In this document: positions 2,835 to 10,169 of the stretch, in pieces | Numbering within the stretch: position 1 is the first letter of the stretch | Layout of the letters: each line of letters begins with the position of its first letter | IMG/VR virus record: IMGVR_UViG_2563366948_000003 | DNA: 44,197 nucleotides | Reading direction: 5' to 3' (one strand) | Source of the DNA: a virus | Taxonomy: Duplodnaviria; Heunggongvirae; Uroviricota; Caudoviricetes | Notes under the pieces: generated by a model | What the model saw: the letters and a program-made list of their open reading frames with translations, nothing else | The model's database searches: none | What the model was told of the DNA's origin: nothing | Program-made: the position numbers and the translations under genes

Positions 2835-5800
2835 TTATGCCTGAGTACGCAGCGCTTCAAGGCGGCGCAGGTCGAAGTCGTTCAGTTCGTCGGTGTAGTC
2901 AGCAGTGATTGGCGCTGGCCATTCACCTGTGTCGAATCCGGTTGCGATATTGCGCATCGCTTTGCGGTACTCGAGCATACCCAGCTCCAGTAGTTCAGCG
3001 GATGCCTCGATGATGGCGATCCAGTGGTAGTTCTCGTCTTTGTTGACGAAAATCCAGAAGAACTGATCCAGCGCTGCGGTTTCGCAGTACATAGCCGCGC
3101 TCAGGTGATAATCACGTTCAATAATTTCCCGGTGTAGCCTGGCGCGCAGGCTTTCCTGCTTAACATTCCACATGCTGATGGTTTTCAGGTCAGCACCGAT
3201 ACGCACGCCGTCTAGGTCGATCTCAAGGTCAGGGCGCACACGAACTTCCAGTCCCGTCTCCTCGTCAAAGCCAAAGTAGCTCACCTCAACGGCGCGGCTC
3301 GGGTGGGTTAGCAGCATGCCTGCGGTCGGGTGCGAGAGCAGTGCTGACTGAATTGCCTGCGCGGTGGCAAGTTGCTGGTGGGTAACCAGCACTTTCCCTT
3401 CCGGGTTGTTGCGCCACGCATCGAGCAGCTCGTCGGCGAACACTGCATCTGGTTTGACTGCCTTCACGGCCTGAATCAGATCGGCCTTCGTGCCAGAGAC
3501 TTTCAGCGGTTGCAGCTTCTGAGCTTCCTGCGCGACTAGGTCAGGATTGATAATCGCAAGTTGTTCGAGTAGTGCGTCGCGGCTGCCGCTGGTTTTAATC
3601 TGCGCTGGCAGGGTGGCGTTGTACTCTTTGATGCACGCCTTCATTGCTGTTGCTGTCTTCTTCTGATCTGCATCGATACGTTGGAATTCGGCTGGCAGCG
3701 CCATATAGTTCTGCGCCGTTTCATCCAGGCTAGCGCCCAGCGGCACCAGCGCTGGCAGGGTGGCGTTGTATTCATCCAGCAAAGCTTTGATATCGTCTGC
3801 GCTCAGTTGCGCTGGCAGGCTGGCGTTGTACTCATCAATAAACGCGCGGATCGTTGCCGTGGTGGTAAATGCACCTTCCGGAATTACGGGTTCAACGCTA
3901 AATTCTTCATCGAGCTGTTCTGGCTGCAACGCCAGCGCATGTACCAGGTTTCCCATGTCCAGCACTGAGGAGCGCTCTTTGACGATGGTTTTCTCAACGT
4001 GGCGCGCATTGAAGTACATCAGCGAAACGCGCGCATCTTTTACCTGGGTGGAACTGATGCCGTTGGCAGCGTGGTAAACCTCGTTCGGCAGACCTTCATA
4101 GCGGCCAGGTTCGAAGTAAGCAGGGTACACAACACCCGGTTCGTCAGATTGAGCTTCTGGCTCGGTTTGGGCCGCAACCGGTTCGGTTTGGTTTACAGAA
4201 TCGCTGTTTTGGCTAACAGAATCCGCATTCTGGCTCACATCGGCTTGCTGGCCGGTATGTGACTCTTCACCAGTTTCCAGACTGCTTTCGCCTGACTGCA
4301 CTTCATCACCAGCCTGTTCTTCATCACTGACAGTTTCTTCCATCTGCACATTGCTGGTGGTTTCCTCATTAAGTGGTGAACGGTTATCTGTTTGTGTTTG
4401 TTGATCGCCCATCAGGCCATCAATGGAGAATACGCCGTTGCCCATGTTGGCGATTTGTGGCTGTTTAGCAGCTGTTTTCTGCTCTGCAGCGACCTGCTCA
4501 TTAACCTCATTTTCCCAGCTGACGTCCGACGCATGACCAGCATCAGCCAGCGTTTCTTCTGAGGGGTTTGAGTGGTCATTTTCGGTTAGATTGGCATTGA
4601 TATATGCCCGCAACCGCCCAGGAAAGTTAACCAATTCTGATGATGTGCCGCGGATGAGTGCAAAGATGGCGGCGCGTGAATAGTCCAGGATGCCAGCGGT
4701 TTTGCGCAGCGCCTCAGACCATTCGCTGAATGGACTTTCTTTCTTGCTGACAATCTCTTTAGCGCGACGGTAGACCCCACCAGGTATGTCGTAGATATTG
4801 AAATCCATTGGCAAGGTGGCCAGCGCAATTTCAACATCCAAAGTGTCCAGTGTGTGGACATAGTCGGTATTACGATCGGTCTTATTTCCACCGCCAGCAT
4901 TGGTTTTGACGTCAGTACGTTGAATCTGCGCAACGCGGTTACCTTTCTGCCATTCCTTGACCAGCAGGCCACGGTCGATGTAATCAGTGTTGAACCACAC
5001 AGTCAGGAACTGGATAACTGTTGCCAGCTCCGGTTTTTTACCGTCGACAGGGAAGACTTTCTTAACAGCATTCACGACTTTATGAATATCGTGCTCAATG
5101 GCTTTTTTGAATGCTTCCACATTCTCAGCAGCCAGCAGCAGGTTCTGGATGTACGTATCATCAGTGTCCATCTCAAGGCGGACAATCTCGTTTTTCTGCC
5201 CAGCGTCGATGTGATAGAGATATTCACCATCACCGATGAACTGAGCCAGTACGCGCTGACGGAATGGCAGGGTGGCTACGACGATCAGGTTCGGCTGATC
5301 TGGCTGCTGAGATTGTTCTTCGGTACCGACTTCATCACCAACGCTGGTGGTTTCAGTTTTGAGCAGAGGAAACCTTCCACTGCGCCAGTCTTCAACCAGT
5401 TGATTGCGATCACCTGCTTCTGCGTTCACCCAGTCAGACATGAAAGCAGCGATCACTTCAGGTCCATGCTCTTCACCCTGTTCGAAGATGTCTTTAATCG
5501 CCTGAATCATTTTCCACTCAGCATTAAGACTGAGTTCGCCAACTTCAGGAACATCATTTTTAACCTGCAGCAAGTTCTGGAGATAGGTATTGCTTTCGTC
5601 CAGTGACATTTCGCTGGCAGTCAGCTGCTGCTCTTTAGTGACGTGAGTCTGGTACTTATCGCTCATCAGATGGAAGGCAAAACGGACTGCTGGAGTGCGG
5701 TTTTCTAACGATACATTCTCGTCAGAAGTCGCTACTTCATCTGTATTTTTTACATCGGCAGGGATAGTGGTGACAACGTCGCCAGCGGCCTTTGGCAGCC

Positions 5801-6065
5801 AGGTGCGCCCGTCGTCCTGCAGTTCGTAACGATCACACCAGGTGAAATCAACTTCACCTTCTTCCGGCAGGTCGTCATATACCGGGAAATCGGTGCGGAT
5901 TGGTTTGGCATAATCTTTACCGCGGCCAGTTTCTTCAATTCCGGCTTCTTCCAGTGCCACATCGAGTTGGAGATTGGCGCGCGCTACACTTTTCGCAGTG
6001 AACCAAATCACTGCATCTTTCTTGCCAGACTTCTGACTGGCTTTTATCAGATGGAAAAATTCCAT
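2835..6065 (-). CDS. recE: RecE-like exodeoxyribonuclease VIII (large multidomain protein with C-terminal PD-(D/E)XK nuclease)
   Basis: Long ORF (1111 codons in the track). Likely start is the internal ATG at 6065, preceded by an AGAGGA RBS. C-terminal ~250 aa carry a nuclease-like D...E/D-x-K context (RPDLEIDLDG...DLKT). Position upstream of a RecT-like gene matches Rac-type recET modules. Contains three tandem ~20-aa coding repeats. Confidence 0.6.
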   Translation of the reverse strand: MEFFHLIKASQKSGKKDAVIWFTAKSVARANLQLDVALEEAGIEETGRGKDYAKPIRTDFPVYDDLPEEGEVDFTWCDRYELQDDGRTWLPKAAGDVVTTIPADVKNTDEVATSDENVSLENRTPAVRFAFHLMSDKYQTHVTKEQQLTASEMSLDESNTYLQNLLQVKNDVPEVGELSLNAEWKMIQAIKDIFEQGEEHGPEVIAAFMSDWVNAEAGDRNQLVEDWRSGRFPLLKTETTSVGDEVGTEEQSQQPDQPNLIVVATLPFRQRVLAQFIGDGEYLYHIDAGQKNEIVRLEMDTDDTYIQNLLLAAENVEAFKKAIEHDIHKVVNAVKKVFPVDGKKPELATVIQFLTVWFNTDYIDRGLLVKEWQKGNRVAQIQRTDVKTNAGGGNKTDRNTDYVHTLDTLDVEIALATLPMDFNIYDIPGGVYRRAKEIVSKKESPFSEWSEALRKTAGILDYSRAAIFALIRGTSSELVNFPGRLRAYINANLTENDHSNPSEETLADAGHASDVSWENEVNEQVAAEQKTAAKQPQIANMGNGVFSIDGLMGDQQTQTDNRSPLNEETTSNVQMEETVSDEEQAGDEVQSGESSLETGEESHTGQQADVSQNADSVSQNSDSVNQTEPVAAQTEPEAQSDEPGVVYPAYFEPGRYEGLPNEVYHAANGISSTQVKDARVSLMYFNARHVEKTIVKERSSVLDMGNLVHALALQPEQLDEEFSVEPVIPEGAFTTTATIRAFIDEYNASLPAQLSADDIKALLDEYNATLPALVPLGASLDETAQNYMALPAEFQRIDADQKKTATAMKACIKEYNATLPAQIKTSGSRDALLEQLAIINPDLVAQEAQKLQPLKVSGTKADLIQAVKAVKPDAVFADELLDAWRNNPEGKVLVTHQQLATAQAIQSALLSHPTAGMLLTHPSRAVEVSYFGFDEETGLEVRVRPDLEIDLDGVRIGADLKTISMWNVKQESLRARLHREIIERDYHLSAAMYCETAALDQFFWIFVNKDENYHWIAIIEASAELLELGMLEYRKAMRNIATGFDTGEWPAPITADYTDELNDFDLRRLEALRTQA
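3600..3870. repeat. Three in-frame tandem direct repeats inside the RecE-like gene
   Basis: DNA motif GCGCTGGCAGGGTGGCGTTGTA(C/T)TC occurs three times (~3604, ~3752, ~3810). It encodes repeated peptide EYNA(S/T)LPAQ/L. Confidence 0.7.
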
Positions 6066-6203
6066 GTGAGATCCTCTTTTTTGAGTGTTAGAATCCCCGG
6101 GCCAGAGATAGCGCCCATTGGATGTTTTTTGGTTTGGTATAAATTCCGGTGTAACTTTGGTCGGTGGCACCGGACGTGAATCCCGCCTTGCGCGGGGTTT
6201 TCG

Positions 6204-6727: not shown

Positions 6728-7017
6728 ACCTACTGCGCGTTAATATCACCACCTCATTCCGGTTTTCGTATGCCCCGGACGGCTACTTCGTGGGCTCAAT
6801 GCCTGGGTGGTTCGTGGTGCGTCTTGGTGAGTTAGATTAAATCACTGGTTTATATATATGTCAACTTAAGGTTAGTGTTAATTGTAAATCTGAGGTTTAT
6901 GTGGCTGGGTTTTGTGACACGTCTGCAGAATCGCAGGCAAAAAAAATCCCGACGCTAAGGTCGAGATCGGGGACTTCGTGGCTGGGTGTTGGCGGCTGAG
7001 ATGGTGGGTGAGGGTGT

Positions 7018-7041
7018 AAAAAACCCGGCGCTGTGGCCGGG
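7018..7041 (-). terminator. Rho-independent terminator ending the hicAB-containing operon
   Basis: Stem CCCGGC/GCCGGG (7024-7029 / 7036-7041) with a 6-nt loop. On the minus strand it is followed by a U-tract (A-run 7018-7023 on the plus strand), directly after the stop of the 7049-7474 gene. Confidence 0.65.
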
Positions 7042-7048
7042 TTGGAGA

Positions 7049-7474
7049 TTATTTTCTAGATGATGTTGGGGACCAAGGTAACGTTATAGTATCTAACACT
7101 GTGTTTTTGAACATATTTTCAAAAACTGTTTTTGTACATACATATACATAATTTTCAAAAAACCAAGCATTTTCATTATAAAAATCCTCAGTTACTTCTT
7201 CATCGAGGTCACACTCAAATGTTAGTGTCAAGGTAGCCTCTGCCTTGAACAATACATCCTCACCATCATCAAAATCTTTTTTATCGCGAGGGAAACCAGT
7301 TATCGATGGCTTAACTTCAATAAAGAGCCAATTTCCATCTTCATCTTTTTGAGGAACAACGTGATGCTCAGAAAATTTTAAGCTATATTTTCCGCCTTCA
7401 GAATTATCACTGTCGTCGATAAAAAGGGAAGAACCCTCGAGATCAAATCCCTTAAAGCGAATTTTATCAAGCAT
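7049..7474 (-). CDS. Acidic protein translationally coupled to hicB; candidate SecB-like chaperone
   Basis: 141-aa product from the ATG at 7474, which overlaps the hicB stop (TGATG). Acidic and aromatic-rich. N-terminal KIRFKGFDLEGSS loosely resembles SecB QRIYTKDISFEAP, and C-terminal FFENYVYVCTKTVFENMF...LDTITLP resembles SecB [25 protein letters not shown]. Similarity judged by eye only. Confidence 0.4.
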   Translation of the reverse strand: MLDKIRFKGFDLEGSSLFIDDSDNSEGGKYSLKFSEHHVVPQKDEDGNWLFIEVKPSITGFPRDKKDFDDGEDVLFKAEATLTLTFECDLDEEVTEDFYNENAWFFENYVYVCTKTVFENMFKNTVLDTITLPWSPTSSRK

Positions 7475-7932
7475 CAATGTGGCACTCCGTTGTCTACTGA
7501 AACTTCCCAATAGGTCTCTTCTGTACGTCTACGGGATGAGAAGAAAGTAACTTCTCTAACATCCCTCGGTTTTTCAAAGTGGTAGTGAACCTCTTTTTTC
7601 CCATTAACTGACTCACTGACAGCCTGTTTTACATAATCGTTTAAAGTCATATTCTTAGCTTTAGCAGCTAAATATGCTTTTTTATGCAGGGATTCACCTA
7701 TCCGGATGTTAAACGAACCACTCATTGTCTTATCTGGAGATTTTCCTATCTCTTCACAAGTGGAGAGGTAATCGTCCACGGCCTCCTCAAAGGCTGCACG
7801 GAGTTCTGCAACCGTTGCACCCTCATAAGTGACGAGATCATTTATACATTCGAGTTTTCCATGCATCACCCCATCTTCAAATGAAATGCTGGAGCTACCA
7901 TAGTAACCTTTGTATTTCATCAAGTTATTCAT
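7474..7932 (-). CDS. hicB: HicB-family antitoxin with ~40-aa C-terminal extension
   Basis: HicB-like core (YKGYYGSSSISFEDGVMHGKLECINDLVTYEGATVAELRAAFEEAVDDYLSTCEE...SGSFNIRIGESLHKKAYLAAKAKNMTLNDYV) followed by an aromatic-rich tail (HYHFEKPRDVREVTFFSSRRRTEETYWEV). Start overlaps the hicA stop. The track ORF begins 15 nt upstream at 7947. Confidence 0.8.
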   Translation of the reverse strand: MNNLMKYKGYYGSSSISFEDGVMHGKLECINDLVTYEGATVAELRAAFEEAVDDYLSTCEEIGKSPDKTMSGSFNIRIGESLHKKAYLAAKAKNMTLNDYVKQAVSESVNGKKEVHYHFEKPRDVREVTFFSSRRRTEETYWEVSVDNGVPH

Positions 7933-8179
7933 GATCATCAATCTCATCTAACAGCTGTTTAACTTCTTCCAAGACGTACCTTTTGAGGGTGTTTTCAGGA
8001 TGGGGCTCATGAAAAATGACCAATCTATCAACACGTTGGTTGTAAAATTTACGGCCAGAACCTCGTTTAGCATTCAAAAGCTTGAAGCCATACTGGTTCA
8101 TGAGAGTAACGAACTCATCCCAAGTAAAATTTTTGGGTAAGCCGTCTAACTTTGACTTTAGCTTTTCCTTTCTTCCCAC
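7925..8179 (-). CDS. hicA: HicA-family mRNA interferase toxin
   Basis: 84-aa protein with HicA/YcfA hallmarks (FVTLMNQYGFKLLNAKRGSGRKFYNQRVDRLVIFHEPHP). First gene of the operon, overlapping hicB. Confidence 0.8.
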   Translation of the reverse strand: MGRKEKLKSKLDGLPKNFTWDEFVTLMNQYGFKLLNAKRGSGRKFYNQRVDRLVIFHEPHPENTLKRYVLEEVKQLLDEIDDHE

Positions 8180-8339
8180 GAAGGATACATCCTCTGTTAA
8201 AGGTAGTGCAACTGAAATCTAGTTGCAAGCTATGCTATCTATAGACAAAATGTTTCATTGTTATATCAGAAGATACCCGATCTGTTTCACCTTCAACTAC
8301 TATAATTTGTTATAAGCTATCAACCGGTGGAACTGCGAA

Positions 8340-8438
8340 TTAGCCGCTGGGTGTTGCGTATCCATCGATGATAAACCATGCCATAAACCCCATAGCTACG
8401 ATGAACACCAAGATCGGAAACACTATACCAATTCTCAT
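8340..8438 (-). CDS. Small hydrophobic peptide (32 aa), putative single-pass membrane protein
   Basis: Hand-translated: MRIGIVFPILVFIVAMGFMAWFIIDGYATPSG. AGGGA RBS-like motif 7 nt upstream of the ATG. Lies between the repressor-like gene and hicA. Below the ORF-track size cutoff. Confidence 0.3.
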   Translation of the reverse strand: MRIGIVFPILVFIVAMGFMAWFIIDGYATPSG

Positions 8439-8483: not shown

Positions 8484-8876
8484 TTACTCGGCATCGCCCT
8501 TAATCCGCCGCCCCATATATTTGGCGTACAGATCGTCGAGTTCCTTCAGGCGCAGTGATACCGCCTTAAGAACTCCACCCTGATCCTCTTCGGGGAGTTG
8601 ACGGAAAAGGCGTAAAAGCTCTTGCTCATTACTTTTTAATCCATCATTGGGCCCTATATCCTGCCCCAAAACCCAGGCTAAATTCACACCAAGCGCATCA
8701 GCTAGCTTAAGTGCGGAGTTTTTCCCAATAGTTCCCCTTACAAACCAGTTGTTAACCGACTGGGATGTTACGCCACAAATTCTGGCCAGATCTGCTTTTG
8801 AGAGATGTTTACTATTCGTGATCTCATTGAGTCGTCTGACCTGTGGGTTATCTGATTCGTGTGTATTTTTTCTCAT
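8484..8876 (-). CDS. XRE-family HTH DNA-binding protein (repressor-like, paralog 2)
   Basis: HTH (LSKADLARICGVTSQSVNNWF) plus a helical C-terminal region (LRLFRQLPEEDQ...LKELDDLYAKYM). No S24 peptidase domain. Likely start at the internal Met (MRKNTHE) at 8876. Confidence 0.7.
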   Translation of the reverse strand: MRKNTHESDNPQVRRLNEITNSKHLSKADLARICGVTSQSVNNWFVRGTIGKNSALKLADALGVNLAWVLGQDIGPNDGLKSNEQELLRLFRQLPEEDQGGVLKAVSLRLKELDDLYAKYMGRRIKGDAE

Positions 8877-8895: not shown

Positions 8896-9279
8896 CTAAT
8901 CAGCATCGCCCCTGATTCTGCGATTCATGTACTTGGCATATAGTTCATCGAGTTCCTTCAGACGCAGGGAGAAGATCCTTATCATATTCTGCTGTTCTTC
9001 TTCCGGTAACTGTCTGTAGAGCTCCAGAATACGTTGTTCATCAGGCTTAAGACCATCCTTCTCTCCAACATCCTCACCGAGTAGCCAGGCGACAGAAATA
9101 CCAACAGCGTCGGCTATGGCCAGTGCCGATTTCTTACTAATCACGCCTTTTTTGAACCAGCCGTTTACGGCCTGAGGGGTGACTCCAGCTATTCTTGCCA
9201 TGTCTGCTTTGGTAACGCCGCGATCAGTGATCTCAGTAAGGCGCTCCACCAGAACGAGGTTGGGTTCTTCTTTTCTCAT
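8896..9279 (-). CDS. XRE-family HTH DNA-binding protein (repressor-like, paralog 1; CI-like position)
   Basis: Paralog of the downstream gene (VTKADMARIAGVTPQAVNGWF; LELYRQLPEEEQ...LKELDELYAKYM). Divergent from the cro-like gene. Start at 9279 (MRKEEPN); the longer track ORF is probably an over-extension. Confidence 0.7.
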   Translation of the reverse strand: MRKEEPNLVLVERLTEITDRGVTKADMARIAGVTPQAVNGWFKKGVISKKSALAIADAVGISVAWLLGEDVGEKDGLKPDEQRILELYRQLPEEEQQNMIRIFSLRLKELDELYAKYMNRRIRGDAD

Positions 9280-9381: not shown

Positions 9382-9600
9382 ATGTCCGCACTCGATAAAG
9401 CAATTAAAGCCGCTGGCTCTGCCAGAAAGCTCAGCATCGCGCTTGGTGTGACGAGTATGTCTGTAAGTCATTGGAAGAATCGTGACCAAGGGATCGTCCC
9501 GCCAAGCTATATCTTCCCGATTTTCAAAATGACAGGCGTAACCCCCCACGAGCTGCGCCCTGATCTCTATCCAAATCCCACTGACGGATTACCAAAGTAG
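9382..9600 (+). CDS. Cro/YdaS-like HTH regulator
   Basis: 72-aa protein with HTH (ARKLSIALGVTSMSVSHWKNR), divergent from the repressor-like gene. Resembles the YdaS/Cro family. Confidence 0.7.
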   Translation: MSALDKAIKAAGSARKLSIALGVTSMSVSHWKNRDQGIVPPSYIFPIFKMTGVTPHELRPDLYPNPTDGLPK

Positions 9601-9611
9601 GAGCACTGACA

Positions 9612-10169
9612 ATGCAAACACTTTCTTTTCAACAGAATAACAGAGCGCCATCAGAGCACCTGAAATTCCAGTATCAACACAGTGAGGCTGAAGGCCAGCC
9701 GGTCGATCACCGGGCTATCTGTTCTGCCGTCCGCGCCTGGGCGGCGGCAGAGGGCCGCGTGGCGGTCGCTCTGGCGATTAAAGAGGCTGCCGAACAGGCC
9801 GAGCTTGACAGCATTGACATGACCGGCAGCGCCGATGTGTGGAACGTGAAGCTGTTTCGCTGGCTGGACAACCACGAGAAATCACCGGCCTACCGGGCGA
9901 ACGTCGAGCAGCTGGCGCCGGTAATAATTTCGGTTCTGCCGCTGGCGTACCGGGATCGCGTGATTAAGCACGACTGCTTTGCGGTTCGTGTCGCCAGGTC
10001 GGTGAAAGAAGACGCTGAGGCGATACAGGCTGTCGTCCTCAAAGCCCCCAGACACGAACGGATGAAGGAAATCAGCGAGAGCATCGTAGCCAAGCTCTAC
10101 CTGGACGGACCTGATTCTGTGGCGCCCATTATGGCGATGGTTACAACGATGCTGGGTGGTGCGCTATGA
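9612..10169 (+). CDS. YdaT-like / CII-like regulatory protein
   Basis: 185-aa ORF directly after the cro-like gene. Segment WNVKLFRWLDNHEKSPAYRANVEQLAPVIISVLPLAYRDRV resembles the YdaT family pattern (recalled from memory). Confidence 0.5.
   Translation: MQTLSFQQNNRAPSEHLKFQYQHSEAEGQPVDHRAICSAVRAWAAAEGRVAVALAIKEAAEQAELDSIDMTGSADVWNVKLFRWLDNHEKSPAYRANVEQLAPVIISVLPLAYRDRVIKHDCFAVRVARSVKEDAEAIQAVVLKAPRHERMKEISESIVAKLYLDGPDSVAPIMAMVTTMLGGAL

Follow-up and report, generated by a model that had tools for sequence, protein, structure and literature searches.

A coupled hicA-hicB-third-gene cassette in a Rac-like prophage as a probable sequence-divergent toxin-antitoxin-chaperone system

What is the role of a third gene that is translationally coupled to a hicAB pair in a prophage, and how does it relate to the long tail in which the adjacent antitoxin ends? 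These questions are raised by positions 7049 to 8179 of a 44,197-nucleotide stretch of DNA from a virus of the Caudoviricetes (IMG/VR record IMGVR_UViG_2563366948_000003), the whole of which is referred to here as the window. An initial annotation, made from the sequence by eye, read the trio as a possible toxin-antitoxin-chaperone (TAC) arrangement. TAC systems are defined as type II toxin-antitoxin (TA) modules where a SecB-like chaperone rescues an antitoxin carrying a C-terminal chaperone-addiction (ChAD) extension, and the TA families involved are HigBA, MqsRA, and HicAB (PMC5105189). The computational analysis presented here leads us to conclude that the cassette is probably a self-contained, prophage-borne TAC system of the HicAB type. 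This reading is supported by the predicted fold of the third protein, by the co-occurrence of the third gene with the antitoxin tail, and by the co-variation of the two; the predicted disorder of the tail speaks for it as well, and the sequence test against SecB speaks against it.

The features of the cassette, given with their coordinates in the window, are the following:

7925..8179, minus strand: hicA, toxin gene of a diverged HicA subfamily, GTG start, 84 residues
7474..7932, minus strand: hicB, 152 residues, with an N-terminal HicB domain, a ribbon-helix-helix at about residues 70-110, and a 43-residue C-terminal tail
about 7605..7477, minus strand: the HicB tail, residues 110-152, which follows the ribbon-helix-helix
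7049..7474, minus strand: gene 3 ('hicC'), 141 residues, acidic, with a predicted SecB-like fold; putative dedicated chaperone
8207..8227, minus strand: probable HicB operator, the palindrome TGCAACT-AGATTTC-AGTTGCA, which precedes the start of hicA by about 28 nt
7016..7043, minus strand: intrinsic terminator (Timm) closing the operon, a hairpin at 7043..7022 with a T-run

The coupled operon proposed at the outset was borne out. The hicA stop overlaps the hicB start within ATGAATAA, and the hicB stop overlaps the start of gene 3 within TGATG (TGA at 7476..7474, ATG at 7474..7472), so that toxin gene, antitoxin gene, and third gene succeed one another with start-stop overlaps throughout, as in TAC operons. 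Since the coupled trio recurs in diverged loci of Pantoea, Enterobacter, E. coli, and Vibrio, the three genes are taken to be real rather than chance open reading frames (ORFs). The terminator expected after gene 3 was also found; its GC-rich hairpin has a folding free energy of -14.6 kcal/mol (z-score -4.8), none of 200 shuffled sequences folded equally well, and the same hairpin is named Timm in the GenBank entry of phage mEp234 (EF120460). Some 50 nt further downstream, at 6945-6968 on the minus strand, Timm is followed by another hairpin that resembles a terminator and has a T-run.

The identity of HicB, which had been called clear, is confirmed by a match of 66.9 bits (cutoff 21) to the Pfam family HicB (PF05534) over residues 55-104. 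The 119-position profile phrog_9151 (HicB-like antitoxin) matches residues 1-119 only, and hence the C-terminus extends past it. The hicB start at 7932 (MNNLMKYKGY) agrees with the consensus of 54 homologues; PGAP places it four codons later. The tail begins directly after the ribbon-helix-helix, at the junction ...KQAVSESV|NGKKEVHYHFEKPRDVREVTFFSSRRRTEETYWEVSVDNGVPH, and the description of it as aromatic-rich and about 40 residues long holds up well: six of its 43 residues are Phe, Trp, or Tyr and three are His, together 21%. It carries the motif [EQ]xHxH in its proximal part, a Trp in its distal part, and a His at its end. In the 120 closest HicB clusters, proteins of 146-170 residues with a tail of about 43 residues predominate. 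An AlphaFold2 model based on 54 homologues is confident for the N-terminal domain and the ribbon-helix-helix helices; residues 111-152 lack secondary structure, and the predicted local distance difference test score (pLDDT) falls below 50 for residues 125-152. The tail is thus predicted to be disordered, as a ChAD-like extension would be. Besides its profile match and its modelled DNA-binding helices, HicB has a candidate operator in the conserved palindrome upstream of hicA, to which it would be expected to bind.

Gene 3 was modelled with AlphaFold2 as a monomer and without templates (mean pLDDT 79; predicted template modelling score 0.73). The model consists of a short N-terminal helical turn; four long antiparallel strands (residues 5-19, 28-44, 47-62, and 76-88), with the beta3-beta4 loop at residues 63-75 being acidic, of low confidence, and the main site of insertions and deletions in the family; a long helix at residues 96-122; and an extended C-terminus in which an invariant Pro133 lies in an LPW motif. 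These elements correspond one to one with the description of the M. tuberculosis chaperone SecB-TA, which has a helix alphaN, four strands of 13-16 residues, with the beta3-beta4 loop disordered, an alpha1 of 30 residues, and an extended segment at its C-terminus (PMC6377645). Three structure searches with the model were in agreement, and a TAC chaperone ranked best, followed by SecB: with Foldseek against the PDB, all 18 top matches were SecB chains, with TM scores of at most 0.74, and in BFVD two of the four top matches were phage proteins annotated as SecB. Structure prediction, which the initial annotation had named as a check, therefore gave a SecB-like fold with a TAC chaperone as its best match, and on this predicted fold the third protein is of the kind that a TAC system requires. 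In PDB entry 5MTW, the pocket for ChAD residue Tyr114 is formed by the segment after alpha1, L154-P155-P156-L157 (PMC6377645). From the correspondence of elements rather than from a superposition, we infer that the most conserved residues of the gene 3 product, hereafter HicC, sit where 5MTW has this pocket.

The association of the tail with the third gene was surveyed in 80 IMG/VR loci, 78 of which were informative. Behind HicB proteins with a tail of at least 30 residues, a HicC-family gene follows in 52 loci, another coupled ORF of 120-175 codons in 11, and neither in four; behind those with a tail of at most 10 residues, the corresponding counts are zero, one (probably spurious), and 10. 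A coupled gene of this size is therefore present behind 63 of the 67 tail-bearing HicB proteins vs one of the 11 tail-less ones. The single ORF of the latter group, 124 codons long in locus L087, is a low-complexity overlapping frame and probably no gene. Locus L011 was discarded as a tail-less case; it comes from a frameshifted long-read assembly and has a fragment of gene 3 downstream.

Individual loci illustrate the same association. In those of Pantoea, Enterobacter, E. coli, and Vibrio, a coupled HicC-family gene of 141-155 codons comes after a tail-bearing HicB, and these genes match the hidden Markov model of the HicC family with E-values of 1e-34 to 1e-46. Their settings vary: the E. 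coli locus lies in a nin region beside hok, the Vibrio locus in an integrase island, and the Enterobacter version, indexed in 1174 blocks of the genome collection, adjoins a cI-like repressor gene. A two-gene locus (L012) encodes a HicB of 124 residues that has no tail, and no such third gene follows it. The sharpest case is that of an E. kobei prophage (L004:3001-3345), whose HicB is 96% identical to that of the window up to ...SESV and then ends in ESPRV*; tail and coupled gene 3 have been replaced precisely at the domain junction by a different sequence. As the L004 contig ends 56 nt after hicB, it is a coupled gene 3 that is excluded there.

Not only the presence but also the type of tail follows the third gene. 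In a P. aeruginosa locus (L013), a tail-bearing HicB is followed by a coupled gene of 149 codons outside the HicC family, here called fam2. Of the distinct tails paired with HicC, 34 of 36 have a Trp within the last 20 residues together with a His or HDA end, and none of the seven paired with a fam2 gene (0/7) has this combination; the proximal [EQ]xHxH motif is common to both classes. The fam2 modules (L013:2938-3387, L074, L077, L079-L083, and L089) share the HicB subfamily and the palindrome, their third genes are 146-151 codons long, and the distal Trp is missing from their HicB tails, which end in V[QK]. Further coupled third genes behind tail-bearing HicB proteins were seen in IMG/VR loci L075, L097, and L098, which gave no match to the HicC profile, and in L069 and L093, which matched it weakly. 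By eye, all five share a C-terminus consisting of a helix followed by hydrophobic-x-Pro, which suggests further divergent SecB-like lineages.

Co-occurrence and co-variation of this kind show a specific interaction between tail and third protein and not chaperoning itself. They would also suit a third TA component with no chaperone role, such as a co-antitoxin, a toxin-binding adaptor, or a transcriptional co-regulator, for which the tail would be a docking site. The lack of a SecB sequence signature in Pfam searches is in keeping with such a component; this alternative is considered unlikely. Another alternative takes gene 3 to be an independent, co-transcribed moron, either a SecB paralogue for export or a superinfection-exclusion factor, next to an ordinary two-component HicAB. 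The cassette does occupy a moron-rich slot, phages do encode proteins annotated as SecB, and housekeeping SecB is acidic too. An independent gene would not be expected to keep its start-stop overlap with hicB across diverged loci, to occur in the survey only behind tail-bearing HicB proteins, or to be tracked by the class of the tail. Moreover, SecB has a short C-terminal helix, alpha2, after its long helix, whereas in the model of gene 3 no helix follows residue 122. This second alternative is accordingly regarded as very improbable.

At the sequence level, gene 3 gives little indication of what it encodes. Its product is acidic, as first described, with an isoelectric point of 4.36 vs 4.26 for E. 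coli SecB. It is annotated as hypothetical in RefSeq, matches only phrog_19522 (function unknown in PHROGs), and has no NCBIfam family at E ≤ 1. Among 1.84 billion representatives, an exhaustive HMMER search yielded only 60 proteins at E ≤ 1e-3, 24 of them at E ≤ 1e-10, and a profile scan of the genome contigs with a narrow gene 3 alignment returned one locus.

Several results weigh against the TAC reading. The evidence for the fold is one AlphaFold2 model built on a shallow alignment of 10 sequences, and the five models obtained range in pLDDT from 45 to 79. The profile search against SecB (PF02556) that had been suggested as a check was negative: neither gene 3 nor 54 full-length relatives match any Pfam family, SecB included, at E ≤ 1, and four further third genes likewise leave PF02556 unmatched at E ≤ 10. 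Searches of the PDB with gene 3 (phmmer) and with profiles of 10 and 54 sequences were empty at E ≤ 10. Comparison by hhalign of the gene 3 family with E. coli SecB or with a SecB alignment gave probabilities of at most 0.4%, a weak test because that alignment was shallow (members at least 83% identical). The weak SecB-like patterns that the initial annotation had seen by eye at the N- and C-termini are thus statistically undetectable with either Pfam or hhalign, and for this reason the SecB assignment is drawn from the comparison of folds only. PADLOC has no model matching the cassette. The Fisher p-value of 8e-9 for the association of tail and third gene overstates the support, because the loci surveyed are related and hence not phylogenetically independent. 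Finally, HicA lacks its canonical catalytic His, so that even its toxicity and RNase activity are assumed. On the strength of the shallow alignment, the range of model confidence, and the lack of sequence support, one could hold the SecB fold to be a modelling artefact and gene 3 to be an orphan of unrelated structure, an explanation that we regard as distinctly unlikely.

The fam2 proteins bear on this point from another side. With E. coli SecB, fam2 aligns by hhalign at a probability of 72.6% (E-value 3e-5; 24% identity over 101 columns), and the alignment pairs LYPYLRN with LFPYARE. Between fam2 and the HicC family the score is weak (9.5%, E-value 0.0034), a further point on the negative side; the alignment is in the correct register at beta4, alpha1, and the xPW motif. 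The fam2 proteins may therefore provide a weak transitive link in sequence from HicC to SecB, additional to the evidence of the fold.

The toxin had initially been called as clear as HicB, which stands for its family and not for its active site. HicA passes the threshold of the Pfam family HicA_toxin (PF07927; 32.1 bits, cutoff 27, E-value 1.2e-7) and matches phrog_8887 ('toxin', 2.7e-34); it belongs to a diverged subfamily of 81-87 residues with an N-terminal extension (the window and loci L005, L008, L012, L013, and L014). In place of the canonical GSH or GSNH with its catalytic His, GS[GR]RKF was seen in all six subfamily members aligned with K-12 HicA, an alignment of 19% identity in which the assignment of residues is tentative. 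The sole invariant His of the subfamily is H60, in the motif PHP. No solved structure related to this HicA was found by sequence. Given both the replacement of GSNH and the lack of a solved relative by sequence, the catalytic mechanism is not to be assumed.

Under the TAC reading, the cassette may be proposed to work by analogy with HigBAC of M. tuberculosis and with HigBAC and CmdTAC of E. coli. The HicB tail would be a ChAD element that renders HicB prone to aggregation or labile to proteases, and an oligomer of HicC would bind the aromatic distal portion of the tail, with its conserved Trp and terminal His, and keep HicB functional. HicB would then neutralise HicA and, through its ribbon-helix-helix, repress the operon at TGCAACT-N7-AGTTGC. 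HicC might be titrated away, the most plausible agent being a structural protein that a superinfecting phage makes in abundance; HicB would then be lost, HicA freed, translation arrested, and the infection aborted. The role of the cassette would be that of rexAB in lambda, whose exact slot it holds in phage mEp234. A more far-reaching proposal, offered tentatively and with some doubt, is that the HicC proteins form an undescribed branch of SecB-fold chaperones of about 60 clusters at 50% identity, that they recognise ChAD elements of a new class (with ExHxH in the proximal part, Trp in the distal part, and His at the C-terminus), and that they sense phages in abortive infection together with a HicA of possibly non-canonical mechanism. 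No HicC cluster has a Pfam match, and most lie behind hicB genes of the ribbon-helix-helix type in Enterobacterales and Vibrio prophages.

How new is such a system? Knowledge of HicAB-SecB TACs goes back to 2012-2016, and one from Methylomonas methanica was functionally validated in 2016 (PMC5105189). That system, Mmet-TAC (M. methanica MC09, Metme_2813/2812 and SecB-TA; Bordes et al. 2016, PMC5105189), resembles the present cassette in its toxin-antitoxin-chaperone order, its HicA/HicB pair, an antitoxin extension of about 42 residues, and a small third protein of SecB fold, predicted in the case studied here. It differs in that its chaperone is described as a SecB homologue, whereas HicC is undetectable by Pfam SecB or hhalign; in that its ChAD ends in ...ALEKQYA (deduced from primers), unlike the W...H-COOH tail found here; and in that it was validated functionally, whereas the cassette here is known from computation. 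The M. tuberculosis HigBAC system (Rv1955-Rv1957; PDB 5MTW; Guillet et al. 2019, PMC6377645) differs in several respects: sequence identity is 12-14%, the pair is HigB/HigA rather than HicA/HicB, the system is chromosomal and lies off prophages, and its ChAD motif EVPTWHRLSSYRG is unconserved here.

A parallel in genomic setting is HigBAC of E. coli NT1F31, located downstream of cI in a lambdoid prophage, at the rexAB locus, and activated by gpV, the major tail protein of lambda, as it vies with the ChAD for chaperone binding (Mets et al. 2024, bioRxiv 10.1101/2024.02.24.581848). Defence by a TAC encoded on a prophage is also described for CmdTAC (Vassallo et al. 2024, PMC11618068). In both, the chaperone is the phage sensor (bioRxiv 10.1101/2024.02.24.581848; PMC11618068). 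The cassette shares with them its encoding by a prophage and, with HigBAC, the variable slot downstream of cI, which it occupies in phages mEp234, HK106, and mEp506; the toxins differ, HigB being an RNase and CmdT an ADP-ribosyltransferase vs HicA here. No mention of HicA is made in the paper of Mets et al. (bioRxiv 10.1101/2024.02.24.581848).

Less is shared with hicAB of E. coli K-12, in which the gene for a HicA-family toxin likewise lies upstream of one for a HicB-family antitoxin; in both systems HicB is expected to regulate its own operon. The K-12 HicB is not significantly similar to the HicB studied here and has a helix-turn-helix as its DNA-binding domain vs the ribbon-helix-helix of the latter; K-12 has no coupled third gene; and its HicA is 58 residues long with GSNH vs 84 residues with an N-terminal extension and GSGRKF.

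The trio already carries a label: a 2025 GenBank entry for mEp234 (PV340539.1) names its products HicA toxin, HicB antitoxin, and 'HicC chaperone'. Literature searches found no paper on this system or behind this label. The initial view that a HicAB-based TAC in a prophage immunity region would be uncommon was overstated, because HicAB-SecB TACs form a class that was already recognised (PMC5105189), a HigBA TAC has been published in the same slot, and the GenBank label predates the present analysis. Architecture, concept, and even name are already known; in these terms the cassette is probably a sequence-divergent TAC. We found no prior description of this chaperone family as lying outside sequence-detectable SecB, or of its specific tail motif.

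The gain is incremental, since the TAC concept is established, and consists in the first place of a probable function for a family listed as hypothetical (RefSeq) or unknown (phrog_19522). Because SecB-like TAC chaperones can escape detection by sequence, surveys of TAC systems by SecB homology probably under-count them. A HicAB-type cassette joins the elements known to occupy, in lambdoid prophages, the slot downstream of the repressor gene, and such cassettes are candidates for defence of phage against phage. In addition, the co-variation of tail and chaperone provides natural matched and mismatched pairs for the study of ChAD-chaperone specificity.

The perfect palindrome upstream of hicA is probably the operator of HicB, given its persistence. 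Its form TGCAACT-N7-AGTTGC stays the same across four diverged loci with differing flanks, occurs at one site in the window vs 0.07 expected, and was present as a single copy upstream of hicA at each of the 16 related hic loci examined, including the two-gene, Pseudomonas, and Vibrio versions. A consensus promoter scan upstream of hicA found no sigma-70 site under its criteria; in our own reading, the promoter of the cassette lies around the palindrome.

Concerning its distribution, positions 7020..8340 are 99.8% identical to phages mEp234, HK106, and mEp506, where the cassette lies between cI and Timm, the position of rexAB in lambda. The cassette of the window is hosted by a prophage adjoining kch in E. 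coli AR_0118 (a match at 100% coverage), with RecE/RecT, two CI-like helix-turn-helix repressor genes, YdaS/YdaT-like genes, and O, P, and Q. The exact cassette occurs in six of 5426 complete E. coli genomes. Near-identical copies (99.8%) thus reside in prophages with different immunity regions, and owing to this the cassette is a mobile, self-contained moron.

On the minus strand of the window at 2835-6170 is an ORF of 1111 codons that PGAP annotates in AR_0118, with a later start, as a RecE family exodeoxyribonuclease; RecT comes next in that strain, and the prophage is called Rac-like on account of this pair. Just upstream of the cassette, at 8484-8876 and 8896-9279 on the minus strand, are the tandem paralogous CI-like repressor genes, whose products share 58% identity, give matches to HTH_3 and Phage_CI_repr, and lack a Peptidase_S24 domain; next, at 9382-10169, come divergent YdaS-like and YdaT-like genes. 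The space separating hicA from the repressor genes holds, at 8340-8438 on the minus strand, a hydrophobic ORF of 32 residues, MRIGIVFPILVFIVAMGFMAWFIIDGYATPSG, which PGAP labels a YoaK-family small membrane protein, and it is at the edge of this ORF, at 8340, that the 99.8% identity to mEp234 stops.

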